Assembly: GCF_000497125.1 (NCBI RefSeq)
Contig: NC_090603.1
Span: 806,001 to 870,000 of the forward strand
Direction of reading: 5' to 3'
Source of the DNA: Spironucleus salmonicida
Lineage: Eukaryota
DNA: 64,000 nucleotides
Of this stretch, positions 5,304-38,371 are shown in pieces. The notes under the pieces were generated by a model. The model made no database searches and was not told where the DNA came from. It saw only the letters and a program-made list of their open reading frames with translations. The translations under genes and the position numbers were made by a program. Each line of letters opens with the position of its first letter. Within the stretch, counting starts at the first letter, position 1.

Positions 5304-5593
5304 TTTTAAATAATTAATCATTTATATTATAATTTATTATTAACTTCTTTACTTTATGTTTTCAATCAATTTTTAGATACAAAAGTAAAGGTTAGTAATT
5401 TGGAATATTTAGTTTTTAATGAAAAAACTAAAATTAAGAATGTTTGTATAAACTAAAGAAATAATAATTAATACTATATTTTTTAAAATAACCAAATTAC
5501 ACTTCAATTGTATTAATTATAGTATATCTTTTCTTCAAATCATTTGTTTTACTTTACAAAATTCATTATTTACAAACACGTATCTTCAACTGG

Positions 5594-6529
5594 ATGACCA
5601 GGGCCCAGCCTGCAGTACCGCCTACGTCGAGGAACATTATAGAGTTGCCGTATACGAACGAAATCAAGCAGCTCACCGCAAACTACGCCTCCCAGGAATA
5701 CAACGCCTTCATCAACTCCTGCAACATTCCGGACTGCAAGAGCCTGCTGAAATCGCGCAAGAGCGTGGTGTTCCCGTGCAGGAACGACTTCTACGCAATG
5801 CAGATCACATTCATTCGACCAGTCCACATCCAGTACCTCAACTTCTTCTCCAGTCAGCCTTTCGCATCCAACCTGCGGCAGGTGCGCATGTCCGCAGAAG
5901 GCGTCGAGGTCGGCAACATTGCGCTCAACTCCCGCGGGGGAATGTTCAAGGTGGACCACCCGGACGCTGTCAAGTCCATCCGCTTTGAGTTCAGCGTGTT
6001 CGAGAACAAGTTCCATATGTGCCAGATCGGCAACATCGGGGTGTACGGAAACAACATCCTCAAGATGCTGGAGCAGAACTTCGACGAGACGCTCTTCATG
6101 CGGCAATTCCAGCACGCCCCGGCGAGTGGTGCGGACCATGGCGATTTCGGGCTCGAGTTCCAGCAGGAGAAGGCGCTTAGCAGGAACCTGTTCGTCCGGA
6201 TTAACCAGGACCTGCTGGACCTCACCAAGGAGGCCAATGAGCTCAAGATTCAGCTCGGGCAGGCGATGTTCCTCATCTCGGTGCTCGGGATCGCGATCGT
6301 GGTCCTCGCTGCGGGGGTAGTGCTTCGGGCGTTCTTCTGCCACCGGACCGTCGGCCTGGACGACGTGCAGATGCGGGCCCGCAGCGGGACGCTGGACGGC
6401 CTCCGAGGCGAGATGCTGCAGTGCCTCCAGAACACGTCCTTCACCGACGACCCTGCCGAGGCGTGCAAGCGGATCGCCTCCTGCATGGACCTGCAGCGAA
6501 TGGGGAAGCCCGTGACGCCCACTCAGTGA
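5594..6529 (+). CDS. Mid-SUN (Slp1/SUCO-like) domain membrane protein, 5'-truncated copy, 311 aa
   Basis: NYASQEY...FPC...FASNL...IRFEF...CQIGNIGVYG, then coiled coil and TM helix. No in-frame ATG upstream before the TGA at 5420. Confidence 0.6.
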   Translation: MTRAQPAVPPTSRNIIELPYTNEIKQLTANYASQEYNAFINSCNIPDCKSLLKSRKSVVFPCRNDFYAMQITFIRPVHIQYLNFFSSQPFASNLRQVRMSAEGVEVGNIALNSRGGMFKVDHPDAVKSIRFEFSVFENKFHMCQIGNIGVYGNNILKMLEQNFDETLFMRQFQHAPASGADHGDFGLEFQQEKALSRNLFVRINQDLLDLTKEANELKIQLGQAMFLISVLGIAIVVLAAGVVLRAFFCHRTVGLDDVQMRARSGTLDGLRGEMLQCLQNTSFTDDPAEACKRIASCMDLQRMGKPVTPTQ

Positions 6530-6531
6530 TT

Positions 6532-8160
6532 TCATTCCTCTTGTGCCGCCCAGTACCGGTACGCCAGCACCTCCGCCACCTGGTGCCGGGAGAGGCCGCT
6601 CACCGGGAGGAATGCGGGCACGAAGAGCATCAGCTCGGTGGAAAAGTAGCGATATAGCACGTTCTGGCGCAGCGCCGCGGTCAGGCCCCCGAAGTATCGC
6701 TCCAGCGCAGCGGCAGAGAGGGCCAGCGCCCGGAAACCCAGACCTCCCACTAGCTCGTCCGCAGCGAGCAGTGCCATGTAGATGTCATCGAAGTCGCATG
6801 GCGTGGGGTGATGCATGGCGTCCAGGAGCGACGCGAGGGCCGCCAGTCGCCCCCGGTCCGGCAGCAGGCCCGAGGCGAACTCGAACGCGTCCCTCTCTGC
6901 GGTGGTCAGCTGGTGCAGCACGCCCCGCTGCTCCACGGTCTACTGCACGAGCGCCTGGTCCGCATAGGGGTACAGCGTGCAGAGCGCAAGAAGGTCCGAT
7001 CCCTCGGCCCCCAAGTGGCGCGCGATCTCTCCCACCCTGGGGCCGTCCAGCGCCACCAGCACCTCGCAGTCCAGGCACACTACCGCAGCAGCCGTGCTCA
7101 CGTCGGCCTGCGCTGCGAGCAGGCACCGCGCGGGCCGGTTCAGCAAGGGGCACACCAGCGCGGCGAACTCAGGCGAGGCGAGGCCGGGGTCCAGCACCTC
7201 CCCGAACTCGACCAGGCAGAACATCTCCGCTAGGCGCATCCCGGGGACCTCCGCAAAGAGCACCCGCAGCTCCCTCGCCACCGCCACGGCAGACGTCGCC
7301 CGCCCCTCGGCCAACTCGCGGTAGTACACCAGCATGAGGCCCGTGGCATGCAGCCAGCCGCTCTCGCTCTGTCCCAGGAACTGCATGCGCTCTGGTACCG
7401 TGGGGAGGCGTTCCAGCTCGGCGTAGAAGGCCGCGTTGTCGTCGCCGTCGCGGGCCAGGACGGCGCTGAAGGAGCCAGCGCGCAGGGCGGTGAAGCAGAG
7501 GAACTCCAGCACGAGCCCGTTCTCAGGCAGCGCCTCGCCCAGCTGCAGGATGTGCCGTACTGAGAGGTGCCGCTGGCCGATGCAGGCACAGAGTGCGCCC
7601 GTGGGGATCGCCGGGACGGCCGCGCACAGCTGGTCCGTGGTGAGGTGCTCCGGGGCCAGTTACCCAGCACCGACGAGCTCCAATAGCATCGTGTCGTCTA
7701 CTGCGGCGAGAGCGACCTTGTGCTGGAGGGATAGCCGCGCACCGTCCACCTTCCCGGCCAGTGCCGCCAGCTCGCGGGCCCGGAAGTAGCCCGCGTTCGC
7801 GAGCGCCATGCCCAGCACCTCTGCGCCCACCTCAGAGCCGGTGAAGTGGGCGCTCTTGAACACGAGCACGAGCTGGAAGACCTGCCGCTGCCGGGCCAGC
7901 GCCAGCACCGCCGGAAAGCTGCGCAGCATCTGCAGCTGGGCGGCCAAAGGGTCCGCCTCCTGCACCAGGGCGCGCGCCTCGCGTTCGTCCGGGGCCAGGC
8001 GCAGCGCGAACACCCGGGCCAGCAGGTCCTCCAGGGCGGCCGACGACCGCGGGGGCGCGTGAAAGTCAGCGAAGGGCGAGAAGAGGGGCGCCAGGGCCTC
8101 CGGGGCGAGGGCGAAGTCGCGGTGCCGGAGGGCGCGCAGCAGGTGCAGGCCGGTCGACAT
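6532..8160 (-). CDS. Hypothetical Leu/Ala-rich helical protein, 542 aa (IR1 copy)
   Basis: Track ORFs 7660-8184, 6940-7512 and 6532-6936 are one frame joined through a TAA and a TAG; strong GC3 bias. Confidence 0.75.
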
Positions 8161-8189
8161 TATGACCCGTCGCAGAGAGCCCACTCCAA

Positions 8190-8564
8190 ATGCTATTCAC
8201 GCGCGAGAACCCGCGGCCGGTGCGCGCGCAGGCCTTCTTCAGCGACGACTTCGAGGCGGTGGTGGTGCCGCTGCTGGCTCCCCGCGCGCCCTGTCCGGCG
8301 GAACGGCCCCCGGACGTCCCGGAGGGAGGGACGACTCCCCAGCCGCCCCGCATGTTCCGCTTCGACGTTAGCAGGGCCCGCCTGGAGTTCCAGGCCCGGG
8401 CCGTGTTCTGCGAGGTGTCCACCATGCACCCGCGGTCCAGGATCGGGCCGCCGCGCGCCACCCCCCGGCCTGCCAGCAGCGCTGCGACGCCGACCAACTG
8501 GGTGGCGCTGGCCCCCAACGAGAGCGCAATCCGCCTGCAGCGAATGGTGGGGAGCGGGAAGTGA
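8190..8564 (+). CDS. Hypothetical protein, 124 aa (IR1 copy)
   Basis: CCACTCCAA-ATG start context, ends AAGTGA, fills the gap between neighbours. Confidence 0.6.
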   Translation: MLFTRENPRPVRAQAFFSDDFEAVVVPLLAPRAPCPAERPPDVPEGGTTPQPPRMFRFDVSRARLEFQARAVFCEVSTMHPRSRIGPPRATPRPASSAATPTNWVALAPNESAIRLQRMVGSGK

Positions 8565-8573
8565 CCACTCCAA

Positions 8574-8801
8574 ATGGACGAGCGCGAGTTCGTGGCGGCC
8601 GGCTTCATCCAGGACCTCCTGCTCCGACAGACGCCCCGCACGGCCCAGTACGACGCTGAGGTGGCCGAGGGCGTGGCGGCCGTGGACGCGGAGCTGCGGG
8701 GGCTTGAGACGCAGCTAGCGGAGCTCACGGAGCGCGAGGGCCGGATATTGCAGGAGCAGCAGATTTACCTCGAGAAGATAGCCGCGCTGGAGCAGTAGTG
8801 A
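8574..8801 (+). CDS. Small coiled-coil protein, 75 aa (IR1 copy)
   Basis: CCACTCCAA-ATG start, heptad-like pattern, ends TAG TGA. Confidence 0.7.
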
Positions 8802-8810
8802 TGTGTTCTC

Positions 8811-10175
8811 TCACTTGTGGTTGGCGAAGATCCTGCCGTACACCTCGTACGCGCTCCAGAGGTCCGCGACGCCGCACACCTCGAAGGGGCTGTGCATGTT
8901 CAGGAGGCCGGGGCCCATGTCCACCACGGGGGCGTTCATGCGTTCGCCGATGAACTTCGCGATGGTGCCGCCGCCGCCGATGTCGATTCTGCCGAGGTTG
9001 GCGAACTGGTAGAGGAAGTCGTCGCCGACGCAGGTGCGGATGGCGTGCAGCAGCTCCGTCGGGGCCTCGGACGACCCGTTCTTGCCCCCAGAGCCGGTGT
9101 AGCGACTGAGCCCGATGCCGCGGTTCATCACTGCGGCGTTGAGCTTGTCGTGCACCGCGGGGAAGTTCGGGTCGAAGAGGGCCGTGACGTCCGCCGAGAC
9201 CAGCAGCGACCTGTAGAAGGCGCGGGCGTGCTGGCGCTCGGCGAGGCCCAGCGCGTACATGACGTCCTTGAGGGTGTACACGAGCGAGCCGGACTGGGCG
9301 CCCGTGCAGCCGCTGGAGCCGGTCTCCTCGTAGCCATAGATGCAGGCGACGGCCGTAGCCGCGGGGGTGTCCTGGAGGTCCACCAGGGCGTGCATCTCGG
9401 TGAACACGCAGATGCCGTCGTCCTGGCCGGGACCGCCGATCATGCTGCGGTCGAGGCCGACGAAGCGCGCGGGGAAGGCGGGGAAGAGCTGAAACTCGCA
9501 GAAGGGTACCTCGGCGGCGGTGACCCCGGTCTCGCGTTCGAGGAGCGCCAGGAAGGCGGGCGTCATCTCGACCGTGTCGTCCGCTGGGGCCGACATGGCG
9601 AGCGTGTTGAGCTCCTCGCCCTTCACGACGTCGCGCATCTTGCGCTCTGCCTGCTCCGACGAGAGGTGGATGAGCAGGTCGGGGATCGTGAACACCGGGT
9701 CGGAGGGCTTGTCGCCGACGGTGAAGGAGTGCAGCCCGTCGGGGCGCTGCACGAACCCCTTGAGCATCATGGGCGTGGTGGCCTGCTGGTACTTCTTGAC
9801 GCCGCCGAAGTAGTGGCACTTGAGCGTGACCACGCCCTGGTCCTTCATCGCGTTCACGAAGTTGGGCTTGAGGTCCAAGTGCGGGTAGTCCCCGTGCGCC
9901 CCCACGAAGGTGAAGCCCGAGTCAGCGGTGGCGGTGCCGCACACGCCAGCGATCAGGCTCTTGTGGTGGTTCACGTAGAAGAACCTGTCGCCGGGGCGGA
10001 GGCCGGCCTCGTCGCCGAGCTCGCGATGCACGAATCCTTTGGAGAGCAGGAGGGCCTGGGCCCACTGGACGCGCTCCCTGTCAGCGTGGTACTTGCTGAG
10101 GAAGCCGAGGTACTCGTCGGCCAAAGAGCGCATCTTCAGCGTCTGCTCCGGCGTAAGCTTTCCGAATAGTGACAT
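8811..10175 (-). CDS. M18 family (aspartyl-type) aminopeptidase, 454 aa, intact copy
   Basis: GAHGDYP, HYFGGVKKYQ, GQDD, EETGS, SADV, GGGTI and MHSPFE motifs. ATG at 10173-10175. Confidence 0.9.
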   Translation of the reverse strand: MSLFGKLTPEQTLKMRSLADEYLGFLSKYHADRERVQWAQALLLSKGFVHRELGDEAGLRPGDRFFYVNHHKSLIAGVCGTATADSGFTFVGAHGDYPHLDLKPNFVNAMKDQGVVTLKCHYFGGVKKYQQATTPMMLKGFVQRPDGLHSFTVGDKPSDPVFTIPDLLIHLSSEQAERKMRDVVKGEELNTLAMSAPADDTVEMTPAFLALLERETGVTAAEVPFCEFQLFPAFPARFVGLDRSMIGGPGQDDGICVFTEMHALVDLQDTPAATAVACIYGYEETGSSGCTGAQSGSLVYTLKDVMYALGLAERQHARAFYRSLLVSADVTALFDPNFPAVHDKLNAAVMNRGIGLSRYTGSGGKNGSSEAPTELLHAIRTCVGDDFLYQFANLGRIDIGGGGTIAKFIGERMNAPVVDMGPGLLNMHSPFEVCGVADLWSAYEVYGRIFANHK

Positions 10176-10738
10176 TGTTGAAACAATCAAATAAAATATT
10201 ATTTATATTATTATATATCAGAATACCATAAATATTATGTGGATTTAGTAGACTCAAATGAATAATAAAATAAAAATAACACATTTTATTTTTACATTTT
10301 TTCAAATCTCTAAATTTTATTTATGTATATATACAGGTTTCAGCTTTTTGTGAATTGATTACTTAGAGTCGAATATATGAAATTTGTATCTAAGTATAAA
10401 TATTATCTTCGATTTACTTTAGCTTATTATATGTTATTATATAATTACTAAAATTATAATGATTAATTGATTTAATATATTATAGCAGTAATAAACTTTT
10501 AATACAATTGATTGAAAGAAAAATATGCTGTTCAACAATTTTTCTTTAATACATAGAAAGTTTTAGTAAAATGAATATTAGATACTTATATTAGTTATGA
10601 TAAGTTAATATTCAACTAACACATAAGATTACTGTCTATGTATTTAGCAATTTAATTTTAACTTTATAAATGTTCTAATACTCTTATTATATATTTATTA
10701 TACAGTTATTATGTTTTAGATGATACTTTCCTTTTAAT

Positions 10739-11026
10739 ATGGCAAATAACGCTGGTGCTTAAAATTATTTAAAGTATCTTGCTAATCCTAGTAAACAAGA
10801 TTTTAAAACATTCAACGAAGATTTATTACCATTACTCTGTCTATTTCTGTAAATAGTATTGTCTCTTGCAGGGTTGGTTTTTTCAGCCACTCCTCTTTTC
10901 TATATCGCTTTCATTGCTGCTTATTATCACATTGGATCATCAACAAATAAAATGTATTCATTATTTGCATTGATTCCGCTAACACTATACACACTTCATA
11001 AGTGGAAGATCACAAATTTCGATTGA
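10739..11026 (+). CDS. Small membrane protein, 95 aa
   Basis: Open code-6 frame with hydrophobic segments. Confidence 0.55.
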
Positions 11027-11076
11027 TTTATAATATTATATACTATATATACTATTATTTATAGTTTTCATTAAAA

Positions 11077-12699
11077 ATGTCATTTATTTTACCTGGTGAT
11101 GAATAGTCTATTTTCTCAAAAAATCAATTTGAGAACAATTAATATAGAATATTAAGACCTTTCTTACGATCTACATCAAATTCTGCATTTAAACCTCTTC
11201 CTGAAGAAACACTTCTTCGCACTATTTCTTACATCCTTATTGATCTTTTCCCTAATGTCTCTTTATAATAATTTTCACCAAAAGAGCTAACTATTTATAC
11301 ATATGATCGTGTTCGTTCTGTATCTGTAAACTTACGGAAAAGCTATCACATTGATAAACTGCTGGCACCTGTTTCAACACTAATTGCTTGTTATGAACGA
11401 AGCTTGCTAACAGATGCTTAACCTTAAGAAATTATAGATTTTTAGAATGCTAGTTCGAATTGGCTTTTTTTACGAAATGAGTTTTTTGGAAATCTAAATA
11501 TTAGTAAAGTTATCATTTAAGAAGCATTAAATGATGTTGTAGCATTAAAAAAATTAGCTGTGAATTTTTTTAAATTTGGAGATATAATATAAGGAATGTT
11601 AGCCTGTGAAGCATTAGGGAGGGTACGTTTTGCACTTTAAACCAAGAATATCGCTAACGGAATAGATTATACGATAAATAATTAAATTATGGAAAAAGTT
11701 AAACTAAATAACGAGTTTAAATATGATATGATCGAATGGGCATGTCATGAGATGTATTTATGTGATTAAAGCTTCGATTTTTTATACAATCGTTAGTTTA
11801 TTGCCAATTGTTTTAGAAAAACAATACAAGATAATTAATTTGCTAAATTTGTACCAATAAGGGCGACTTGGGCGATAAAACCTATAATTTTACTTTAAAA
11901 TTAAATTAAACCGTTATAAATTACTACAGTAACTCGTAATTACGAAAATATTCAAAAACCAATTATTTAAAGCCGAATACAATTAGAATAATAACGTTCA
12001 GACACACCTTTTATTTAAATTGAACCTATAACGATAAATATCACTCATTAACCTACTTTTCCAACTGTATTAACCTCTAGAGTATGTTAGGATCAAGACC
12101 AGATGGAACCGCCACAAAAGTCTTAAGAAATATCTAAATTAGTATTGAATAGTTTTATTTAAAACCAGAAAGAAGATACGAGTGTATAAAATATTTTTTA
12201 ATAAAAACTTAATTGCGCGTAATTGCCTCTAAATGATACTAAAGTAACTTAACCTATATTTATAATGCCCCAAAGTGCTGAAAAATTAGTCCCACATAAA
12301 GTTATTACTTCAATTCCTTAAGAATAAATACATGCGAATTTCCCTTCTGCACCAAAGTAAGGTGATAGTCCTATAAAATTTTGTGTACAGTCTACTTCAA
12401 AACCTACTGAATAGAAATGCTAAAATAATAAGAATCTAGATGTTCTAAATATACCAACTAAAATAGATCTTTAGAACATACGTGAGATGGTTAAGTTACT
12501 ATAATAAAGACTTCTTTTGGAAAAAATTTATGATGCACAAATCCACGTGTTACATTAAGAAAAATTACGAAAAATTATGGAAGGAATAGAAAATGACAAT
12601 GTGGAAATTTAATCTGCTATATTATCTTAATAGGCTGCATCTCAAGAACCTTATGGAAATGCACGATATATTATTTAAAAATTTTGGTATTTAGACTGA
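11077..12699 (+). CDS. Hypothetical protein, 540 aa
   Basis: ATG and TGA in one frame; coding-like, Gln(TAA)-rich composition. Confidence 0.65.
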
Positions 12700-12999
12700 T
12701 GCTTATCTTTATATTTTGAATTAGATTCTAGTTAGGATATGAGTTTATGATGATATTATTATTATTTTATTTATCATAATATAAATCTTTAAATTGATTG
12801 CAAAACAAGAAATAAGGTTTGTTAATTTGAAAATAATATATATTTAAAAAGGTATATTTTATGTAATTCAACATTAAATGTATATATTTAAGTTTATAAT
12901 TGTCATATAACTTTTATCGAAAACCTCTAAAATATTTAAGAGCATTTATTGTCTCAATATTATTATATTATTAAAAATAAGCGCTATGAAATTTAATAA

Positions 13000-13722
13000 A
13001 TGAAGTATTTTATTTATCAGTATGAGTTGCCTTTTCCAAGTAAAGAATATAACATTGCATAACATTATATAGTTGGATAATCTGAAAAATCTACTTCTAA
13101 TTCAATTGAAATTCTATCTGATGAGCTTATTGAGATGCAGACTGAAAGTGGACCATAAGTGGACTTGAATTCACATAAAATTATTCATATTAATAGAATT
13201 GTACCAAAAACATTATCAAAATTGATTCCAAGCTATGCCGAATAACTTGATGAGAAGTCATAAACTAGAGGGTTTGAAGTTATTACAACTTAGATATGTA
13301 AGAATAAACCTGAGGCCTTTAAGCTTATAATTCATACAATGACTTTTGACGAAAAATAAGTAAAAATTCCAAGTTGTTTTACAGAGTTATAAGGAGAAAA
13401 GAAAATAGAAATTATCGATGTTTCGCTGAATAAAGAAATGGATCAGCTATAGGAGAAAGGTAAAATAAATCATAACAATTACTTCTTAGGCAAATAAAAA
13501 TGCTATTGTATGAAATTAATCTGTATTGAAACATCAATATTTGGGAAAAGCGTTATAGAGTCTGGAATTGGAAGTAAGATGAAGAAGGTATTTATTAATA
13601 ATTTTAAGAATTTGATTAGCTGCTATGATAGCTGGAAAGGATTTGATATTAAAGATATTAAAAATCTAAGATAAGGTAAGGGCGTAGAATAAGGAGAAGA
13701 ATTTCAAGATGATGAAAAATGA
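13000..13722 (+). CDS. Phosphatidylinositol transfer protein (PITP, START-like class), 240 aa
   Basis: YELPF..EYNIAQHY, SHKIIHI...VPK, DEKS, CYCMKL and CYDSWKGFDIKDI match the PITP layout. Confidence 0.8.
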
Positions 13723-13732
13723 CAATAGCTTA

Positions 13733-13978
13733 TCACTAAATTTTTTCTAAAATTTAATTAACAAAACTTTAATTGATCTCCTTTTATTAAATAGTTCGCG
13801 TAAGAGCAAAAATAGAATTAGATGAAAACGGATGCTATTAAGGTTATTCTGGGTAATATGAGTCTGTTTTATTAAGCCAAAATGGTATATGTGCATTATA
13901 TGTAGTTCTATTATCACCTGTTAATAGCTTTTCTTTTGAATAGGGAAGTTATATTTCTTATTGATATTTTCTATTCAT
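13733..13978 (-). CDS. Small hypothetical protein, 81 aa
   Basis: ATG-TGA code-6 frame ending TAGTGA. Confidence 0.5.
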
Positions 13979-14088
13979 TTAAAATTTAATGACTATATTA
14001 ATATATTAAGTACTCTAGTAGTTTATATTTTATAGAAATATTATAAATTAATATATTATATATATCATAAATCATAAATTTTCTAATT

Positions 14089-15360
14089 ATGTCTGATGCG
14101 CTAGCATCGTTTAGATCCGCATCAGAACAAGCTTCTCAACTTAAATCCAACGTTAATAATAGTATAATAAATTAGAATACTACTCATAATTCTGCTTTCT
14201 ACTCTAATAATTCAATCAACTCAAATAATTCATTTTCATCAACTAATTCACCACGTTAAAAAAATCAACACAAGCAAAGCTTTGCACAAAATATCGCCAA
14301 TTATTAGGAAATATCTGCGAAACCTCCTTAAGCTACTCCTGATTTGGCTGTTCTTTATGAAAAAATATCACTTAAAGATAGAAAAATCAGAGAACTTGAA
14401 AATGAAATATCATTCATTTCTGATCAACTAGTATCATTAAAATCAGCTTCATCGAATGATTAAAATTTCACTATTTTAAACGATTTGACTATAGCAAAAA
14501 CTTAAATTTCTGCATAAAGAAATGAAATTAAAATACTTAAAGCATCTTTAGAAACTCAAGAAATCACAGTATCACGTCTCAAGGTAATTTTAAGTTTTAG
14601 AGAGAAATAGCTTGCCATTTAGAGCGAAAAGAAGCCTCCTCTCACCGTCAAAAAGTAGAAGCTATCTGAAGAAGTAAAAAATCTTATTTTGGCAAATAAA
14701 AAACTATCAGAACAATTATTTAAAAACCGTGAGAAATTGACACGGGAATAATTTCTTGTTCTTTAGTAAGAGAAAATAACAGAAGCTGTAGAGATTGAAA
14801 CACGTATTATTTATGAGTAAAAAGCAGAAATTTTGGATTAAATGAATATACTGAAATAAGAGAATAAATAGCAACAGAAAATTATTCGCATACTTGAAAC
14901 TGAAGCTTCTAAATCTATAGAGGCAACAGATTCAAAATTTAGAAAATAAATTGGCGAATTAAAATAGGAAATACTAGATTTGGACAGTTAATTGGGTAAT
15001 AAAAATCGATAATTAGCAACAGCTTAAAATCGCACAAGATCTTATGAATAACAAACCCTTATATACAAAGATGTTTCTGAATTAAAATCAGAAGCTATAA
15101 GTAGGCATCTACGCAACAATAATGATTTGAAGTTAGAAATGAAAATGCGAAATTATGAGACAAAGTCTATACTTAAATCGGCCAGTAATTAGATTTCAGA
15201 AAAATTAATGCAAATGAAACGTGAAAATCAAAAAATCTGTTAAGAATATAATATTTTGGCAAAAAAAACGAGCTCAGAAACTCGTGCTGAAGAAAAATTG
15301 AGGGATATATATTAATAGCTAAACGAGATTAAAGAGCTCACTGAGTGACTTGAAATTTGA
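14089..15360 (+). CDS. Coiled-coil protein, 423 aa
   Basis: Code-6 frame; Ser/Asn-rich N-terminus followed by E/K/Q-rich heptads. Confidence 0.75.
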
Positions 15361-16003: not shown

Positions 16004-16051
16004 TTACTGATTATAAATATTATTTATATTATAGTAAACCTTATTACAAAA

Positions 16052-17164: not shown

Positions 17165-17215
17165 AGTGAGAACATATATTATTATATACCAAATTAAGAT
17201 ATTTAAAATATTATA

Positions 17216-21724: not shown

Positions 21725-21726
21725 AA

Positions 21727-27237: not shown

Positions 27238-27617
27238 TTTTCTTATGATTATATACTATTTTTATTTATATATACTGATGAATTACATCCTTATCTAAAT
27301 ATTTTATTTTATTATTAGTTCATGTGATAGTAAATATTCTTTGATTTTTCAAAATACTAATTTGGTTAAAGTAATAATATATATATATATGTAAAACTTA
27401 ATATATCAAATCAAGAAATATACTACTTATTATAATATTTAATATATATCAATAATATTTGTTTTAGTATTATTTGAATGAAATAAGCTCTTTATTACTT
27501 AAGCGTGTATATAGTTATAATACCATATTATCTAAATTAGTTACAAACTCTAATAATACTATCACATAAAACTAATATATTTAAATATATTAGTTTTATA
27601 AAAATAATAATCTACTC

Positions 27618-28172: not shown

Positions 28173-28388
28173 TTTGTTATACTAACAAACCCAGTTATAT
28201 TTATTTATATTATATTATGAAATAAATTTCTGTCTAAATTTATTAATTCTATTCTAAATTAGTAAATGTGAAATATCATAAATATAATCTCATATAAAAT
28301 TAATTATTAAAATTATTTGATTGATGAAGATATTTATCCAAATAATTGTATATTATACTCGGTATACCCTCAAAATAATTTATTTCTT

Positions 28389-28829
28389 TCACTGATTTGA
28401 TGGAGTCATAATTTACTTTATTGTTTAATTCGCTAAGTAAAGGTTATTATTAATTAGTTTCCTTGATAATATTTTCAATTCTGTTAATTCGTCTTTTTAC
28501 TAAGTATTTTCATTGAACTATTAAATATTTTTATAAAGTTTTTAAATCATTATACTTTGTTATTATATATTTTATTATTATGCTGAATAATAACTGTTGT
28601 ATTAAAATTCAAACTATTAGTATTGCTTAATGATTCTTTATTATTCTTAAATAATAGAGTTCACCTCGTTTTCTGTTTATACTTCCTAATTAGACGTAGC
28701 ACATAACTAAAAACTTGTATTATTTATATCTTATTCTTGCTGTTATGATATAGATATCTTTAGTTAATTCAGTGATTAATTCATCTCAAATTAGATATCC
28801 GAGTAGGATTTTTAGTTGGGTTAAATCAT
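28389..28829 (-). CDS. Gln-rich coiled-coil protein, 146 aa
   Basis: Open code-6 frame ending CAGTGA. Confidence 0.5.
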
Positions 28830-28980
28830 CTAAAAATAATGTAGAGTGTTTGTAGAACGTATATCATTTATAAATCCTACTAATATAACTATTATATTTA
28901 TGCTTATTTTTACTTTGAATAGTTTAAAAAATTGTTTCGTTATTAAGTAAACTTTTGATAAAAATTCGATCACTATAAAA

Positions 28981-29247
28981 TCATCCAGGACACATCATTT
29001 TTACCCCAACAATAATTGCCACAATCCATCCCCAGAATATAAAGCATGTGAAGAACATACTAGCACCTGCCACCATCACACCACAACAGGAGGGCCTAAA
29101 GCATCCGTAGCAGCAAATTGAGCAAATACATAAACCTGAACCAGGGAAGAAGATGTTTACTAATCCGGCACAGCATTGGCAGCGTTCAAAATGTGGTTCC
29201 TAACATTTGAAAAAGATATCACAACAAGAAGGCTCCTCATTCGACAT
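28981..29247 (-). CDS. Cys-rich small membrane protein, SPEC3/Stum-like, 88 aa
   Basis: LVNIFFPGSG...FIFWGWIVAIIVG pattern. Confidence 0.6.
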
Positions 29248-29862
29248 TTTGAGCTGTTGTAGAAAGTAGATTAAAAGATATTGTTTAAATACTATTTACT
29301 ATAAAATCATAAGTTTATCTAATTCTTTAACCTCCATCAATACATATACATCATTCTGGATTGAACTAAGACTTAAAATTTATATTTATAACTATTAAAA
29401 TTCTTTTTATAATCAAGAATAATGTTACTTAACTACTATACATATTCTTTAGCGGACTAAATTATACTATTAATATTGTACACTATTTTTTTTCAATTTT
29501 AGTTCAAATTTACATATATACTTAGCTTTACCGTTATTTAAACACACTGAATATAGTAGGTTTAAAGCGAAAATATTAACAAATCGAGTAATTTTTCATT
29601 ATTAATGCTGAACCCTAACTCAATATGTTATTTTCTTAATAACAAACGTTTGGATCTCGGAAATTGTACCAAACTCACCAAAATACTTTCATTCTACTCG
29701 CAAAATCCATATTTTATAACCCTCAAATTCTTGCATTATATCAACTCAGCCTTCCTAAGGCGTCTTTTTCTAAAATTTCAACCAGATAAAACCGCTAACC
29801 TCAAGGAAATTACCGTATCTTCCTATTTTCCGAAAAAATATCTCAGTATCACTTAAAATCAC

Positions 29863-30369
29863 TCACTCGTAGCTCCGCATACACACCAAAATCTGATTCA
29901 GGATAGAGTCGACCACCGCCTCGCAAAACGCGACGTCGACTACGACCTTTTCCACTTCCAAATTCACGCCAAATCCAATTTCCGGCAGCTCCTTCAGCGG
30001 CTGCTCCTCAAATTTCACAGAAAAATCGGTGGTTTTGCCGTCAAACTCAGTAGAATTTTCGTGTAATTTGCAGAACGAAACACCGACGGCATCGGCGTAG
30101 CATCCGAGAAGCGCAGGCTCAGAGCAAGAAGGAAATGCGCAGCGCGCTACATTTGCGGATGCTGGAAAGTGGTGCGCGCAGAATTTCGCGTGGGGGAGTG
30201 CTGGAAACTAACAGAAAACGCATTTAGTAGAAGGGGGCGATTTGAACGTTTTCGGATGTACCTGCGAAATAGCTGTTGATTTCAGAAGAATTGGTGTAAT
30301 TGGCTGCGAAAATAGGTCAGGTTATGTTTAAAGAGCTAGATAAGCATTAATTTTGTCAATATTTGACAT
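29863..30369 (-). CDS. Zinc-finger protein of the zf-C3Hc3H (KANSL2/INO80D-like) type, 168 aa
   Basis: CVFCQFPALPHAKFCAHH...RCAFPSCSEP...FCKLH; ends GAGTGA. Confidence 0.65.
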
Positions 30370-30455
30370 TTTCTAGAGTGGTGTGAATTAATAAAATTTA
30401 TAATAGTATATGATAAATATTTATATAATTATCCGTTCCTATATTTCTTAAAGTA

Positions 30456-31382
30456 ATGTCAGATCATGAAAATAAGTAGGAAGAAGTGGAGTTAGATATT
30501 TTTAATGCTCTAAGTTCCAAAAAAGTATCAGATAGGATATCAGGTATAAATGCTTTTCAAAGCTACCTAAAGACAAATGATCCAATTACAGATTTATCAG
30601 ATGCAATTATTACATGTTTCAAAAAGTAGCCAGATAACCCAGAATTGTTCGATTTCTTATCTCATTTTATATTAACGAACACTACAGAAGATTTAGAAAA
30701 CAGTATTTTCTCTTTCTTTGATGATTAGAGAATTTCGATTCTTCTTAATTAACCATCTTCAGATTCGTTGATAATTTTTGCATCTATTTATTAAGTTTTT
30801 ATTTCATCATCCGATCTAATTGTGTAGAAGTTATTTGAATTATTCAAAGATAGGCCAACAGAAACTCTATGTACGGCTCTTTCATATATTACAGTTTCTA
30901 ATTTAGAGTTAGTTTAGCATCTTATATAGTAAACTGAAACCATTCAATCTTTATTAGAAAGTGATAATATTAGTCTATAAATAGGAGCAGCACGTTTGGC
31001 ACTATCGTCTGCAGTAGCTGAAAATTACGTTTCCAACTTTGAAGAGTTAAATGATATTTATGGTTATAAAATTAGTACAGAAAATAAGAAACTTTACAGA
31101 AAAAGCTTTGGTGAATTTTTGGACGAACTAAATGGAGAATTTAAAGGCGAAAATATAAAAATTGGTCGCGAAACTATTGAAATTGATAGTAGAGAATTTC
31201 AGGACAGATATGATATGATTAAGAATGGTATAAATGATGGAAATCTGAATTACTGGTTGTGTAAAGGCTTGAGAGTTAGGGAATTTTTAGGTTTAGGAGA
31301 TGTGGTAACCGATGTAATTTCAAAAAGACAATCAAAATAAGAAAAATAACACGAAAAAATAAAAAGAAAATAGAACAAGTGA
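30456..31382 (+). CDS. IFRD (interferon-related developmental regulator)-like protein, 308 aa
   Basis: KKLYRKSFGEFL...ENIKIGRETIEIDS...RYD...VREFLGL resembles the IFRD C-terminal region; ends AAGTGA. Confidence 0.7.
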
Positions 31383-31441
31383 TAAATCATTCTTTGTATG
31401 TATAATATATATGTTATATAATTCCGCTCCAAATTTACAAA

Positions 31442-33220
31442 ATGTTATCTATGCTTTCTTCGGCACATGTGGGAAATGACACCACAATGGCTTCTTCTCG
31501 TTACCCTAATTTTACTGATTTTGGTATTAAGTCTCAAATAATTGCGTAGTCACCTTTACCAGGGTAAATGTCTGGTCCAAAACTTCAGTAAGTATCTGAT
31601 GAGCCTTTATAATATAAAACTTCTACCAAATTAAATCTTGAAATGAATACTGAAAATTCAATTTCAGTATCAGTTCTGACAAAAAATGGCGGATCATTGG
31701 TCGCCAAAGCCAGCTCATTAGGGTCAGTAGATGGATTTTGTAAACCCTTATTAGAGAAAGTAGATGAAGAATGTTATTAATGTAAATTGTATGCACGGGG
31801 ATAGTTTGTGGGAACAGGTGAAACTAAGATTACGATCTCTGAAAATCTTACAGATATATGCTCAATTATTTTAGAATTTTAAGTTATTGAATAGAAGCAA
31901 ACATAAAGTGGTTTTAACCCTTATTCAAACCAAGCATAAATTCCTCCACCTCCTTAAGCTTCAGTATCATTTTAGAATCAGTCTATAAATAATTAAACAG
32001 GAGTTTACACAACTTAAATGATGAACTAACATATGAATCAAACATAACATTCTAACACACCTGCAACTTTTTATCCAGGTATATCATATGCTCCTAATTA
32101 GTCAATTTATGATGCTCCAAATAACTACTCTTCATAAATTAATTAACCAACTCCAGCCCCTTAGTAGTTTTAATCAAATGTTACTCCTCTTTAAAATTAT
32201 ACATAAGTACCATTATCTGTTCCAGTTAATGCACCATCTGTGGATATTTAGAATTATGATTAGTAGTAGCAGTAGCAGCATTTCTAAAATTCAATGCATA
32301 ATTCAAGATCTTAAAACATACTTAAATAATCAATTGCATAGACACATTCGCACGATAATCAAATACATGTACCTAATACCCGAGAATCGATTAACAACAT
32401 TGTTACTTCAAATAAGGTAATTCGTGTTTTACCATCTGATGCTATATTTCCACCAGCAGACGCTATGCATCCATCGGTACGTCCAATACGTGTAAGAAAT
32501 GTATTCAATGAACCATTATAGATATCTTGTTCTATTATAGGAAGAAGTTATGACCCTGATATTGAAAAAAATGTTAACTGTTGTAAAACAAATTAACCAT
32601 TCACTATTGTTTAGAATTAAAAATTTACACTTTAAAATTGCGTAGATCCTGATTAAGAAATAATTTCACAAGATGTTATCATATAATTTTAACCGAGAAA
32701 TGCATAAATTACTGAGCAACAATAGTGGTTATTTGCTGCGAAACTGGTTATTTAAGTAGTTGGGCAGACTGTTAAAAAATCATTTTAGGTACCTTTATTA
32801 GGTGCTTTTGGTTAACCTGATATTGTTACGAAAATCATTTCTAATAACTAGTTGATGATTGAAAATATAGGCTAGTGTCCATCGTTTTTAAGACTTAAAC
32901 CAGTGATATCTGGTTAGAACAAGAAACATGCTAGAAATGCTATTCAAGCTCCATTAGCACTTGATTTTGATAGCTTGGTTTTGCAACCTGGTTAATGCTA
33001 AACAGTAAGATTAACTTAAATTTAAACAGAATATAATATGAGTACTGATGAAACTGTATGTATTGAAATTAGATATGGTCATGAAGCTTTACGACTTTTA
33101 GCTTTGGCTAGTGAAGGTAAGGGTGCTTGGAAAGGAATTTATGATGTTTTAAGAATTAAAGATGATGTTTTAAGAGTCATGGGTAATTGCTTAGAATGTT
33201 AAATTGTGGAAATTTAATGA
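31442..33220 (+). CDS. Hypothetical protein, 592 aa; Q/P-rich linker and possible Ig-like (ASH/MSP-type) C-terminal domains
   Basis: ATG and TGA in frame; IRVRN, IENIG and LVLQPGQ motifs are only suggestive. Confidence 0.6.
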
Positions 33221-33365
33221 TTTGTTGTTTATATAGTTTATTAGTATAATAACTATTATTATTACCACAAGTAGATTTGAAGTTATTTTAAAGAATTAAG
33301 ATAATATTATAATTATAAATAATTATAATAATATATTATAGTTAGAATATTATTTAAAGATTTAA

Positions 33366-34745
33366 ATGATTAGAGCGCTTCAATTTCTCATAGCTGTCTT
33401 TTCATTTATTACTATAAAATTAACCTTTTCACATTTAAATTGTTTTAAGAATCCATCAAGGTAGATGTTTGTTATCAACATCATCAGACTTTCAACCTCA
33501 ATTTTATCCTCATATTTTTTATATTAAAATTAAAACTAAAATTCATGGCTGCTATTCTTAATTGGATCTCCAACTTTCTTCCTTAATTTTCCAAATGTAA
33601 AATTTTTCCGCAAACAAAAAATAGATCATAAAGTTCATTTTTCTATAATTTCATCTTCCTTTTTTATTCTTCCATTATTTTTTGTTTTTGTACTTACTAT
33701 TCATATTTTTAAGTTAGAGCTCATTTTTGCTTATTTAACTTCGGAGTTATGGTTTTCAACATATCCAGTTTTGAAGTTTAATAGAAATAGAAATATGCTT
33801 ATCTAAATTAAAGAATTTCTGTCACTATCTGCAGTATATTATGCATTTTAAGGAAATGAGAAATTAGCTAACAACTAACTTTTATCATCCATTATTATTG
33901 CCTTTTTTAATTTTACATTTTGCTCAATACCAAAATTTTGGTATGCGAACATCATTTCGCTTTTAAATATGCTTTGTGGTATTATCGCAATTTATAAGTA
34001 GATTTTCGAGTTTTCAACAAAACCCCAATTTCGTGTTCTGTTCTACGTACTAGCTGGCCAGTTTTTCGATGTATTTGATGGTCGTGCGGCGGATAGATTT
34101 GGCAGTACAAAATATGGAGAAATGTTTGATGATGCTGCTGATTTTACTAGTTTTGGTGTAGCCACTGGAGTATTAATATATTAGAGTTTCCATCACACTT
34201 TTTATTTTTCGCATTCTGTTTCACTAATAAGTGCTATGTTTTATATTTCTTGCGTAGCTTTTCGTCTCGTGCGTTTTGTTATTAATAAGCACAAATCAGG
34301 AAAAACTGGTGGAGTTCGTTTCTTCGAGGGCCTACCTAGCCCGGCAACGAGTGCATTCGTGATTACTTTAACCGTCGGAATTTAAAGCTTTAAAATGTAG
34401 AATTTGAGTGTTTTTGAACATTATAAAAAAATTATATAGGTTATCTATTTGGGTTTAATTATTTGTATTCTTACTCTTACTGTATCAAAAATAAAATATG
34501 CCCATTTTGGGCGTGTTTTCGCAAGCAAAGACTTTGTTTCGCACAAAGCTATGGGTATGTGTGGGTTTGCGTTAATAAGTGCTGTTTCATAGTGTATTGT
34601 TACTAAAAATCCGGATGGTATAGTTGGGTTTGGAATAGTTGGTATAGTTTGGTATATTTTTTCACCAATTTTGACTTAAAAGCTATATTTGAGAGCTGAG
34701 ACTGCGGATATGGAAAGTAGCGAAACAGATGACAAAGATGAGTGA
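33366..34745 (+). CDS. CDP-alcohol phosphatidyltransferase (PssA/phosphatidylserine synthase type), 459 aa
   Basis: DVFDGRAADRFG...GEMFDDAADFTSFG, RLVRF and FEGLPSPA motifs. Confidence 0.88.
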
Positions 34746-35030
34746 AACTAATTGTAATACTTGAATGGTCCAATTTATTATGATCAACAATTATTTTACC
34801 ACACGAAATAATAAAAATCTATAAAATTATCAACTAGTTAGTTTATTATTTATTAGGGAAAACATACCTAAGAATTTAGAATAAAATATTATAAAATTTT
34901 TAACTATTAAGTAAAAATCTTTAACTGTATTATATTTTAATTAATTAGTTCATTTACGAATATATTTTATAAATATCTATACTATATTATATATAAATAT
35001 ATTAAAAAATTATTTTTTGTCCTCTAAGAA

Positions 35031-35645
35031 ATGAGTGACGCTTCAACATATAACGGAGGAGCTATCCTAGCTATGAAAGGCAAAAACTGTGTTGTAGTTG
35101 CAACAGATAAGCGTTTAGGCGCAAGTTATTAAACAATAACAATGAATTACCCTAAAATCTCCCAGCCTAATAAGTCTTGTCTCTTGGCCATTGCTGGTTT
35201 TGCCTCAGATGCTCAGATGCTTCATAGAGATTTAGCATCAAGATGCGAACTTTTTGAGTTTGAAAACAATCGCTCTCTTACCCCTTCAGAGCTCATAAAT
35301 CTAGTATCTGCCGTACTTTATGAAAAACGATTTGGTCCACTTTTCGTCTCACCAATCATTGCTGGTATGGAAGGAGATATTTCAATTGTCGGTGGACATG
35401 ATTCTATTGGTGCTCCTGCCATCAGCGACTGGATCGTTGATGGTACTGCGAATGAGTTCTTACTAGGTCCAGCTTAGATGTACTGGAAAGAAGGAATGGG
35501 AAAAGAAGAACTAATTGAGTGTGCTAGTAAAGTTATGTAAGCAGGAACTAACAGGGATGCATATTCAGGATGGGGTATATAAATTCACTGCATGGAAGCA
35601 GATGGGTCCATGGAAATAAGAGATATAGCTTGCAGAATGGACTGA
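35031..35645 (+). CDS. PSMB3: 20S proteasome subunit beta-3, 204 aa
   Basis: [38 protein letters not shown], terminal RMD. Confidence 0.95.
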
Positions 35646-35841
35646 GTGAAATGTGTAGGGATAATATTAGATTAGTTGATTTATGTATATCAGATTTATC
35701 TTAATATTATTTTGTAAATAAAAGATTATGTATATTTATGGAGTCAAATATTAAATATAAAAAGAAATAAATTTTCTAACAATCTTTATTTTTATTAGCA
35801 AACTCAAGTGTTTACGTATAAAATTTAATTTCTTCCACCAA

Positions 35842-36339
35842 TCACTTCTTCACATCAAATTCTAAAAAATTCTTTTGCCTTAACGTCATATCAGCAGCCC
35901 TTTATTTGCTTGAATTAACTTCAACAGCTTTATAAAAACTTTACCAAGTGTTCTTTTTTTCAATTGGTTTAATTATTTTTTATTTAAACTGGTTAGCTCC
36001 AAGATAAGCTTATTATTGCTAAATAAAGCTATTTTCAAAAAGTTGTGTATTATTACTAGATTTAAGTTAAATTCTCTTAGGAATTTATCTCTCCTTCCGC
36101 AATCTATCAATTTCATCTGTTAGAGTTCTTTATAATATTTAATGTGCTTCTATGCGTTATTTATTAAGGAAATTTGCATATATTTTTTCTTTATGCAAGA
36201 CTGGGTTGGAGAATACTTAAGGTCTTATTGGCTAGGATCTAATAGGAGACATAAGTGATGTATCTACACGATCAAATATTTCTTAGACGGCTGACTACGA
36301 GTACTCGAGGGAGGACAGCGGGATGAGGGCGCTGCGCAT
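35842..36339 (-). CDS. Hypothetical protein, 165 aa, straddling the inner edge of IR2
   Basis: First ~20 codons GC-rich and inside the arm, remainder AT-rich; ends AAGTGA. Confidence 0.7.
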
Positions 36340-36386
36340 TGGGATACGATGGCGGAATATATATAATAATCCTGAAGACCGCAACA

Positions 36387-36851
36387 ATGCGGTTGTCGAC
36401 GCCGCAGCTCACGAAGCACCTGGACCTCAAGCTGTGCTCGGAGCACACCTGCTTCCACCTCACCATCCAGCTGCTGCCTTCGCCCGACGAGACACAGCTG
36501 CAGGCGATCAAGCTGCTGCGCCGGGTCTGCTGCCCCACGCTGGTCGGCGTGAAGAGGCTCAAGCCGCAGCTGCTGAACACCTACGTCCAGCCAGTCTTCA
36601 CGGACCTCTACGCGCAGTTCGGCTGCCCCTCCGAGGACGCCCCCGAGGTCCAGTTCCAGGGGGCCGTTCGCACCGCGGCGAGTGGCGTGTACTGTATATC
36701 GGGCGCCAGCGAGTTCGTGGTGGCGTTTGCGGAGCTCCCGCTGCGGGACCTCGTGCAGTGTGGCACCGTCGCCGCCGGGATGGAGGAGCTTCAGCGCCTG
36801 GGGCAGCTGGACGGCAAGAACGAGGCGTGCGAGGTGGTGCAGGTCGAGTGA
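36387..36851 (+). CDS. Hypothetical protein, 154 aa (IR2 copy)
   Basis: Mirror of 25620-26084. Confidence 0.65.
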   Translation: MRLSTPQLTKHLDLKLCSEHTCFHLTIQLLPSPDETQLQAIKLLRRVCCPTLVGVKRLKPQLLNTYVQPVFTDLYAQFGCPSEDAPEVQFQGAVRTAASGVYCISGASEFVVAFAELPLRDLVQCGTVAAGMEELQRLGQLDGKNEACEVVQVE

Positions 36852-36859
36852 GGAATTGG

Positions 36860-37354
36860 TCACTGCAGCATCTGCTCCAGACCCCGGATGCCCAGGCGAT
36901 GCCCCCCGCGCACCAGGCGCATGATCTCGCGCAGGCTGCCGAACTGCTCCAGGAGGTGCTGGCCCTGCACCGGGCCCACACCCGGGATGGCCGTGATGCG
37001 GTCCAGCTCCCGATACACGGGCCTCCTGCCCAGCTCCCGCTCGGCCTGGGCAGCGCTCGCGGGCGCCAGCTCCACCCCGGCTGCGAGGAGCAGGGCGCCG
37101 ACGGCGGTCCCGAAGTCGTCGGAAACTATCAGGTCGGCCTCCAGCGACTGCGAGATGTGGGACACAGCGACCCAGCGGCCCGCCTCGACCGGCCGGCGGA
37201 AGAAGAGGCGCGGCTACAGCGGGCCGGCGTCGAAGAAGGAGCGCTGCAGGCAGTAGTAGGAGAGGGGGTGCGGCACGACCCCAGCCAGGCCGAAGCGCCG
37301 GATCAGGTAGGCCGCCTTGCCTGCCTCCGCTTCGGGCACGACCAGAGTGCTCAT
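36860..37354 (-). CDS. ERCC1/FAAP24-like HhH protein, 164 aa (IR2 copy)
   Basis: Mirror of 25117-25611. Confidence 0.65.
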
Positions 37355-37370
37355 GTGGAGTGGAATTACC

Positions 37371-37787
37371 TCACTCGGCCGGGACCGTGAGGGCGACGCC
37401 GAGGACGGCCAGCATCACGGCGGAGAAGGCCAGTGCGACCCCCGACACCACCCCCGCGATGCTCCCCGCGCCCTGGAGCACCAGCACGAAGGCCCAGGCG
37501 AGGGCAAGCACGGCGCCGTAGGCGGGCCCCTTGAGGCAGTTGGTGGGGAGGGTCTGCTGCCCGCCGGGCCGGGTGCGCACCGCGAGCACCGAGCAGTACA
37601 GGGACACGCCGGCTGCGACCGCGTCGATCGCGAGGTAGCAGCAGGGGATCGCGTAGAGCGAGAGCGGGGCCTCCCCGGCGCGGAAGGCGGCCGTGAGGGT
37701 CTGGTACGTGAAGAGCATGAGAGCGTTCTGCAGCAGCAGGGTCTGCACGCGGCTCTGGGAGACCACGTCGCGGTGCTGGGCGTCCAT
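37371..37787 (-). CDS. Multi-pass membrane protein, 138 aa (IR2 copy)
   Basis: Mirror of 24684-25100. Confidence 0.65.
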   Translation of the reverse strand: MDAQHRDVVSQSRVQTLLLQNALMLFTYQTLTAAFRAGEAPLSLYAIPCCYLAIDAVAAGVSLYCSVLAVRTRPGGQQTLPTNCLKGPAYGAVLALAWAFVLVLQGAGSIAGVVSGVALAFSAVMLAVLGVALTVPAE

Positions 37788-37918
37788 GCGGAGCGGGCCC
37801 TACAAACCCCGGAGTGGTCCGGAGGAATACCCGGATGGCAGAAACATCCCGGAGTCATTCCTATTTCTAGGATACACCATTCCGCACAAACCCACCACAT
37901 CCGATTCCCCCGCCCACA

Positions 37919-38371
37919 ATGAACGCCAGCACCGGCACCCCGAGGCTCTCCATCCCGTCGAGGATCCCGGCCTTCTGGAGCACTGAGCAGCTCGTGGAGC
38001 TCAATGGCTCGCTCGAGGCCCAGAACAGGCTCCTCGAGGCCAGGCTCGCCGACCTCCACGCCGGCCAGGGCCCCTCCGCAGAGAAAGCGTAGAGCGACTT
38101 AAAGCACATTTCACTTCTAATCTCGAAACTTCTAGCGGAGAATAAGGATATTCAAAGTTCATTACAGAGATCCACTACTTGTAATTCGTCGACTGAGACA
38201 CAGTATTTTGACGAAATAGCTTAGTAGGTCGTGGATGAAAAACTTGAATAACTAGAAGCGTAAAATCTGATGTATTACTTTTAACAATAAAGCGATAATC
38301 GTAGAGTTTAAAAATATGTTGATTAATAGAAATAGTGTATTTAGCAGTTGCAACAGAAGCTTAATATATGA
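37919..38371 (+). CDS. Coiled-coil protein, 150 aa, paralog B (first half inside IR2)
   Basis: Open frame across the arm edge at 38143. Confidence 0.75.

Follow-up and report, generated by a model that had tools for sequence, protein, structure and literature searches.

Palindromes on the primate X and Y chromosomes consist of inverted arms with more than 99% identity around a unique spacer, undergo intrachromosomal gene conversion, and carry protein-coding arms that are richer in guanine plus cytosine (GC) than their surroundings (passages of PMC8981503; PMC3723533). Concerted evolution accompanied by raised GC, including at third codon positions, is also described for ribosomal DNA (rDNA) arrays, histone families, and human segmental duplications (via PMC8981503), and this GC enrichment of multicopy sequences has been treated in earlier studies (Galtier et al. 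2001; Galtier 2003; Zhang et al. 2005; as cited in a passage of PMC8981503). In Caenorhabditis, small gene-bearing inverted repeats that are near-identical, and old enough to be shared between species, have been attributed to gene conversion (passages of PMC1803023). Here we describe two such elements, the inverted repeats IR1 and IR2, in a stretch of 64,000 nucleotides (nt) of Spironucleus salmonicida contig NC_090603.1 (hereafter the window; all coordinates count from its position 1). We consider it likely that both are old palindromic duplications whose arms evolve in concert through arm-to-arm gene conversion with a preference for G and C.

Some genome-wide background is available for this species. 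Duplicated regions (at least 2 kb long and at least 95% identical, 19.2% of the genome) were reported to have 44.7% GC versus 30.7%, and gene conversion was mentioned for regions that encode cysteine-rich surface proteins (passages of PMC9509377, 2022).

Repeat architecture and GC content

A repeat search of the window returned just two long inverted pairs; long direct repeats were absent. The raw limits of the pairs were 5560-10201/18055-22696 for IR1 and 24307-26196/36275-38164 for IR2, and base-by-base comparison gives the following clean runs of identity and the spacers between them.

5584..10166: IR1 left arm, 4583 bp, 0.669 GC, wholly coding, GC at third codon positions (GC3) about 0.9
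10167..18089: IR1 spacer, 7923 bp, AT-rich, with single-copy genes
18090..22672: IR1 right arm, matches the left arm in reverse complement except for 12 substitutions; no indels
24328..26193: IR2 left arm, 1866 bp, 0.67 GC
26194..36277: IR2 spacer, 10084 bp, AT-rich
36278..38143: IR2 right arm, matches the left arm in reverse complement except for 4 substitutions; no indels

Identity between the arms is thus 99.74% for IR1 (12 of 4583 sites, divergence 0.26%) and 99.79% for IR2 (4 of 1866 sites, divergence 0.21%). Mismatches crowd directly beyond these limits, where 54-70% of positions in the 150-bp flanks differ. Both repeats therefore have the form of palindromes, with inverted arms of more than 99% identity separated by a unique spacer on one chromosome.

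The arms are also the GC islands of the window. Each has a GC content of 0.669-0.670, compared with 0.28 for the other 51,102 bases. All four GC-rich blocks are repeat arms, none is single-copy, and outside the arms GC stays at or below 0.53 in every 300-bp window. Binned at 100 bp, it changes abruptly between about 0.5-0.6 and about 0.2 at all eight ends of identity, for example from 0.61 to 0.19 at 10166, from 0.23 to 0.61 at 18090, from 0.19 to 0.53 at 5584, and from 0.50 to 0.21 at 26193. An earlier, sequence-only reading of this DNA had equated the GC-rich blocks with the arms of two inverted repeats, had described the arms as colinear with few substitutions, and had noted that GC returns to background where identity ends. 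Base-by-base comparison reproduces the first claim at the same coordinates, and the substitution counts and the eight boundaries bear out the other two. Three-base periodicity indicates that the arms are coding nearly end to end, with GC of 0.8-1.0 at one codon phase.

GC-rich rDNA palindromes had been the first candidate. They were rejected, as were clusters of transfer RNA genes, because Rfam at gathering thresholds gave no matches in the window and ARAGORN found no genes there.

Moderately raised GC occurs in one single-copy patch only, at 29800-30350 in the IR2 spacer (up to 0.53 in 300 bp). The patch sits in the Cys/His-rich C-terminal half of an open reading frame (ORF) at 29863-30615 (-), which has no Pfam family. 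Its GC could reflect protein constraint, or it could be former arm sequence.

A gene that crosses the IR2 boundary

The age of IR2 can be approached through a single gene, here called gX, that runs across the outer boundary in both copies.

24100..24636 (-): gX left copy, 178 aa, spanning the outer boundary of IR2
37835..38371 (+): gX right copy, 178 aa, with the outer boundary at the same codon as in the left copy
24100..24327 (-): gX left tail, beyond the identity run, GC3 0.24
38144..38371 (+): gX right tail, beyond the identity run, GC3 0.32

The arm contains codons 1-103, which are near-identical between copies, and the AT-rich flank contains codons 104-178. When the two tails are compared in register, 114 of 225 nt (51%) are identical, versus 0.298 +/- 0.029 (maximum 0.396) in 2000 shuffles, and BLASTP aligns them without gaps (19 of 59 residues identical, E 4e-8). 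Identity is 0.49, 0.61, and 0.41 at codon positions 1, 2, and 3, where the shuffle value for position 3 is 0.30, and it falls to 0.20-0.23 past the shared stop codon. This is what long divergence under constraint leaves behind, and position 3 is close to saturation.

Because the tails are diverged and yet homologous in register, the duplication must once have reached past the present edge of identity, and it is old. Because silent sites in the tails are nearly saturated while the arms differ by only 0.2%, the arms have been homogenized by gene conversion. The comparison of tails with heads thus shows IR2 to be an old duplication whose core was homogenized from arm to arm. Conversion requires homology on both sides of a tract, so the arms were probably kept alike continuously rather than overwritten once.

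The change in composition also falls within this gene. GC3 is 0.72-0.73 in the homogenized part of gX versus 0.24 and 0.32 in its tails, although the last 13 converted codons are already AT-rich. Because the step lies inside one coding sequence, explanations tied to whole genes, such as expression, codon selection, or foreign origin, fail for IR2. For IR2, and for IR2 only, gX thus rules out gene-level selection, foreign origin, and recent copying.

Residual homology of this kind is particular to the IR2 outer boundary, which is the one significant pair among the four in an in-register test of flanks. The other three pairs adjoin promoter or doubtful ORF sequence and carry no residual homology. 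An all-against-all BLASTP screen of 357 ORFs of at least 50 aa (code 6, overlapping ORF pairs excluded) likewise found gX to be the only pair of paralogs in mirrored positions outside the arms. The earlier claim of arm-to-arm homogenization consequently stands for IR2, where diverged AT-rich tails adjoin near-identical GC-rich heads; for IR1, homogenization is proposed by analogy with IR2 and from the exact coincidence of GC and identity limits.

The composition shift extends to every class of site in the arms. GC3 is 0.86-0.95 in arm genes (0.72 in the converted part of gX), versus 0.19-0.37 in seven single-copy genes and the two gX tails. In arm proteins, Gly, Ala, Arg, and Pro together (GARP) make up a fraction of 0.24-0.45, versus 0.07-0.20 in background proteins. 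For an M18 aminopeptidase encoded in the IR1 arms, the one protein for which ortholog composition was compared, GARP is 0.30 versus 0.20-0.21 in its Hexamita inflata orthologs. This comparison is at the protein level, as PMC11787283 uses none of the terms "GC content", "G+C", and "GC level". Bases between ORFs have a GC content of 0.477 in the arms (only 130 bp) versus 0.214 in 3497 background bases, defined as those outside any ORF of at least 150 aa. Raised GC is therefore confined to the recombining tract and affects all codon positions as well as this 130-bp non-coding sample, which is the footprint of a regional substitution bias limited by protein constraint.

The window contains a built-in control for this relationship.

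39404..50906: third inverted duplication, comprising head-to-head giant paralogs at 39404-45583 (-) and 45483-50906 (+)

The paralogs encode Gln-rich coiled-coil proteins of 2059 and 1807 aa, and the predicted starts of the two genes overlap over about 100 nt. Amino acid identity is 29-31% in the aligned N- and C-terminal regions. The pair is not homogenized and is AT-rich, with GC3 of 0.19 and 0.25. A single-copy M20 peptidase (PepD-like, 144-1613) in the AT-rich background has a GC3 of 0.26, and therefore a housekeeping peptidase is not GC-rich as such in this genome. Two further ORFs, at 52675-53394 (-) and 55074-55601 (-), have the same orientation and a weak similarity (26% over 133 aa, E 4e-6); both are AT-rich.

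Gene content, host origin, and assembly support

The IR1 arms encode five proteins.

5594..6529 (+), right-arm copy 21727-22662 (-): g1, 311 aa, GC3 0.86
6532..8160 (-), right-arm copy 20096-21724 (+): g2, 542-aa orphan, GC3 0.88
8190..8564 (+), right-arm copy 19692-20066 (-): g3a, 124 aa, no family, GC3 0.90
8574..8801 (+), right-arm copy 19455-19682 (-): g3b, 75 aa, coiled-coil-like, GC3 0.89
8811..10175 (-), right-arm copy ends at 19445 (+): M18 aminopeptidase, GC3 0.95

The peptidase assignment made in the sequence-only reading is secure. The M18 protein matches PF02127 over profile positions 1-430 of 432 (E 3.1e-64, 217.8 bits versus a curated cut-off of 24). Its nearest named homologs are two proteins of Hexamita inflata (51% and 48%), and Asgard-archaeal and clostridial proteins follow at about 40%. 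The description of g1 as SUN-like did not find the same support. Sad1_UNC (PF07738) was not matched, and no Pfam family reached E <=0.01 (only noise, with E up to 1). Atlas matches to SUN or discoidin clusters (0.84-0.85, structural template-modeling score 0.55) offer only a lead toward a jelly-roll fold, and the protein has a C-terminal hydrophobic stretch. For g2, a homolog search found only g2 itself, as a Spironucleus salmonicida UniRef entry with 100% identity over 542 residues. The C-terminal codons of g3b are CAG TAG TGA.

The IR2 arms encode three proteins in addition to gX.

24591..25100 (+), right-arm copy 37371-37880 (-): hydrophobic protein, 169 aa, start uncertain, GC3 0.91
25117..25611 (+), right-arm copy 36860-37354 (-): protein like helix-hairpin-helix (HhH) proteins, 164 aa, GC3 0.91
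25620..26084 (-), right-arm copy 36387-36851 (+): g154, 154 aa, no family, GC3 0.93

The 164-aa protein had been called an HhH protein. It does give a weak helix-hairpin-helix match, although one that falls below the Pfam cut-off, and a homolog search found only the protein itself. Two doubtful genes, at 26132-26422 (+) and 35842-36339 (-), begin about 60 nt inside each IR2 arm and cross the inner boundary; these ORFs (96 and 165 aa in total) have their first ~20 residues in common and continue without similarity.

One sequence motif recurs upstream of several arm genes. It reads CCACTCCAAATG before g3a and g3b (8180-8192, 8564-8576, and the mirror copies) and CCACTCCACATG before the HhH-like gene (25107-25119 and its mirror copy), and its 11-letter core is found at no other place in the window. 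GC-rich genes may use it to mark a start site or promoter, or it may be left over from a shared origin.

Codon use in the arms points to native genes. Glutamine codons are distributed as follows.

CAG: 97 in arm genes, 61 in background genes
CAA: 2 in arm genes, 120 in background genes
TAG: 6 in arm genes, 155 in background genes
TAA: 1 in arm genes, 365 in background genes

Seven in-frame TAG or TAA codons in the left-arm genes are read as Gln, including a TAA (7662) and a TAG (6942) in g2 and one TAG (25255) in the HhH-like gene. At one of the inter-arm differences in g1 (6104/22152), the left arm has CAA and the right arm TAA, a change that is silent only if TAA encodes Gln. Given these codons, the identity of g2 to its UniRef entry, the Hexamita relatives of the M18 protein, and a host gene that lies across an arm edge, the arms consist of native host genes and not of foreign DNA. 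The previous suggestion that arm genes are native and use TAA and TAG for Gln is supported in each of these respects.

These observations bear on the idea that the arms were GC-rich cassettes from the outset, either a mobile element or DNA from a GC-rich donor, recently copied or inserted at two sites each. Razor-sharp edges, no residual homology at three of four boundary pairs, and the very low divergence between arms are what such cassettes would leave. This origin is nevertheless quite improbable, since gX spans the boundary in both copies with homologous tails of equal length, the nearest named relatives of the M18 protein are from a diplomonad, and arm genes use TAG and TAA for Gln. The absence of a transposase, as previously noted, was also confirmed. 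No transposase, integrase, or reverse-transcriptase family was found by Pfam in the nine arm genes, terminal inverted repeats at the arms scored at shuffle level, and a target duplication was not found, the longest word common to the two flanks being 3-5 nt. Moreover, conversion depends on uninterrupted homology, and a single insertion event into paralogs that are 50% diverged would presumably lack it.

Support for the junctions comes from public sequencing runs. Eight runs from two studies contain the stretch, and contigs of four of these (X1, X3, X5, and X6) were placed on 18000-27000; we guess that X1 and X3 are DNA and that X5-X8 are RNA. Contigs of X1 and X3 stop exactly at 18090, 22672, 24328, and 26193 with 30-letter overlaps, which is the behavior expected of a two-copy repeat in a de Bruijn graph, and contigs of 4582-4584 nt from the DNA runs end exactly at both limits of the IR1 right arm. 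An overlap of 30 letters does not count as bridging, and this leaves some room for an assembly artifact or contamination, in which foreign GC-rich contigs were stitched in or one locus was falsely doubled. We regard this as extremely unlikely in view of several other observations. The sole alternative continuation at 24328 and 26193 is the flank of the other copy (30 of 30 letters) in all four runs. One 2396-nt X5 contig covers the entire IR2 right arm plus 401 and 129 nt of its own flanks, and two contigs of the second study, from X5 and X6, cross 22672 by 130 nt. Eleven of the 16 inter-arm differences recur as alternative letters in the runs, and in both copies gX stays in frame across the junction. 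In addition, the published S. salmonicida assembly used PacBio reads and optical maps (passage of PMC9509377).

The same contigs provide hints about transcript ends. Those of X5 and X6 stop at 18090 and carry adapter letters there. One X6 contig starts at 19443 after a T-run and adapter, and M18 contigs end at 19452-19454. The adapter features at 18090 and 19443 look like complementary DNA (cDNA) ends, and transcripts of the convergent genes g3b and M18 seem to end some 10 nt beyond the stop codons, overlapping slightly at their 3' ends. The M18 ORF has 454 aa when read from the ATG at 10175, and the database form has 440 aa from Met15 (10133). Just outside the IR1 inner edge (10167-10175/18081-18089), the sequence is ATG TCA CTA in the left copy and ATA TCC CTG in the right. 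Because the right copy has ATA instead of the first ATG, and because the X5 and X6 contigs end at 18090 with adapter letters, the data suggest that the identity boundary is where the M18 mRNA begins and that the true start of the protein is Met15.

This proximity raises the alternative that homogenization was templated by transcripts, through RNA- or cDNA-mediated repair, with tracts ending where transcripts end. A cDNA end is suggested within about 2 nt of the IR1 inner boundary, and 10 nt separate the IR1 outer boundary from the ATG of g1 downstream of it. The IR2 outer boundary, however, falls in the middle of the gX coding sequence, each arm is an unbroken run of identity over four to five transcription units on both strands, and the X5 and X6 contigs extend 130 nt past the boundary at 22672. 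Transcript templating is consequently a very remote prospect, and DNA-level conversion between the arms remains the reading we prefer.

Proposed biased conversion and its place among known systems

The proposed mechanism would operate as follows. Arms would be converted repeatedly, intrachromosomally, and from arm to arm, leading to concerted evolution. Repair of heteroduplexes or breaks during conversion would prefer G/C over A/T, such that only converted tracts would climb from background (about 0.21 GC in non-coding sequence and GC3 of about 0.24) to 0.67 GC and GC3 of about 0.9, shifting amino acid composition toward Gly, Ala, Arg, and Pro. Conversion would halt where the flanks are too diverged to pair, producing base-sharp edges of both identity and GC. 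This causal step, already put forward in the sequence-only reading, agrees with all the patterns observed here. We infer that biased conversion caused the GC rise and did not merely accompany it, and the strength of the bias is deduced in the same way.

The differences that remain between the arms offer further hints. Fifteen of the 16 set A/T against G/C, and nine are synonymous and seven nonsynonymous. They skew outward, away from the spacer (their fractional distance from the inner edge averages 0.68; z 2.45, n=16, two of the sites being adjacent), and GC3 peaks beside the spacer (M18 0.95, g154 0.93) versus the outer genes (g1 0.86, gX head 0.72). Conversion may be more frequent near the spacer, and these two-locus hints of a dose effect of conversion on GC are weak.

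Several considerations weigh against the account given above. The proposed GC bias is deduced from a static pattern. By our own arithmetic, raising near-neutral sites from about 0.22 to about 0.9 GC needs a ratio of about 30 between fixations from weak (A/T) to strong (G/C) bases and those in reverse, and a bare two-copy model implies a bias of about 97%. In primates the conversion bias is about 70% (passage of PMC8981503). Many duplicates in this genome are far less GC-rich than the arms, with a genome-wide mean of only 44.7% (passage of PMC9509377). The IR1 edge at the M18 gene has no GC gradient, with values of 0.61-0.68 up to the boundary. The age of IR1 likewise lacks support from flank homology, which is why its homogenization is argued by analogy: in-register z values are 1.6 and 1.2 for IR1, and -0.4 for the third of the boundary pairs without a signal, and gapped local alignment of 400-bp flanks gives z of 1.4, 3.1 (not collinear), 1.3, and -0.9 for the four pairs. 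Finally, X1 contigs from the arms are not deeper than those from the flanks (13.2 versus 11.7-13.5), those of X3 are deeper (20.2 versus 10.1-11.8), and contig depth is not copy number.

The required bias could be reached in one of two ways. Either repair is almost one-sided, or the effect is compounded by allelic and population-level conversion in this tetraploid. A bolder version of the former, in which a near-absolute G/C preference in resolving heteroduplex mismatches, about 30 to 1, drives recombining tracts to about 90% GC3 against AT-biased mutation, is one that we entertain tentatively and with some doubt. If it were true, local GC would record the history of recombination quantitatively and at base resolution, in a lineage where the existence of sex is still debated, and the palindromes would be "GC pumps", shifting the proteins they encode toward Gly, Ala, Arg, and Pro.

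It is also conceivable that concerted evolution is real and that GC rose for another reason, such as reverse causation (recombination favoring sequence that is already GC-rich or heavily used), break repair that is mutagenic toward G/C, or selection that keeps these genes GC-rich. The static correlation, the extreme bias demanded by the simple two-copy model, and the M18 edge without a gradient are compatible with such causes. On the other hand, the step within the gX coding sequence defeats selection or expression at the gene level, and reverse causation requires a prior GC island whose four edges happen by chance to be edges of homology. Retention of ancestral GC is improbable as well, because GC3 of 0.9 exceeds the genome averages of the two diplomonads compared, 49.0% for Giardia and 33.4% for S. 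salmonicida (Table 1 of PMC3916229). Mutagenesis by GC-biased repair and GC-biased gene conversion are indistinguishable from these data. Overall, we judge a separate cause of the GC rise to be unlikely, and arm-to-arm conversion with a G/C preference continues to be the favored explanation.

If this causal reading is true, the two palindromes would be among the strongest and cleanest natural cases of recombination-linked GC enrichment, with a GC difference of 39 points compared with about 5 in primate X palindromes. They would supply a sequence-only marker of active homologous recombination in diplomonads, would bear on the question of sex and recombination in binucleate, tetraploid parasites, and would explain the published GC-richness of duplicated regions in this genome. 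There is also a warning for annotation: where a protist genome is AT-rich, an island of 70% GC is not necessarily the product of contamination or gene transfer. The genome-wide use of local GC as a mark of recombining duplicates draws on one sentence in the passages of PMC9509377. A literature search, judged partly by titles and the beginnings of abstracts, found no study of GC-biased conversion in diplomonads.

Compared with described systems, part of what is proposed here is familiar. Arm-to-arm GC-biased conversion is known from sex-chromosome palindromes, and the genome-wide GC trend of duplicates is known in this species, as far as the cited passages go. Those of PMC9509377 do not tie duplicates to GC-biased conversion and do not describe palindromes, tract edges, or the loci studied here, and the arms of IR1 and IR2 lie far above the mean GC that they give for duplicates. 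The Caenorhabditis repeats are likewise small and gene-bearing, and the term "GC content" never occurs in that paper (PMC1803023).

The contrast with primates is one of degree and setting. Arms of human X palindromes have 46.3% GC versus 41.2% in their flanks, whereas the Spironucleus values are 67% and 28% (passage of PMC8981503 for the human figures). Primate arms extend over tens to hundreds of kilobases, as described in the passages cited, while those of Spironucleus are 1.9-4.6 kb long and wholly coding. Spironucleus, moreover, is a diplomonad with two nuclei in which no sex chromosomes are known, and the conversion bias, measured at about 0.70 in primates (passage of PMC8981503), is deduced here from composition. 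Relative to rDNA arrays and other multicopy families, the Spironucleus repeats have two copies each, are palindromic, hold unrelated ordinary genes, and include a tract edge inside a gene. What these loci add to the known systems is locus-level evidence of homogenization at IR2, a tract edge within a gene, and an extreme effect size.

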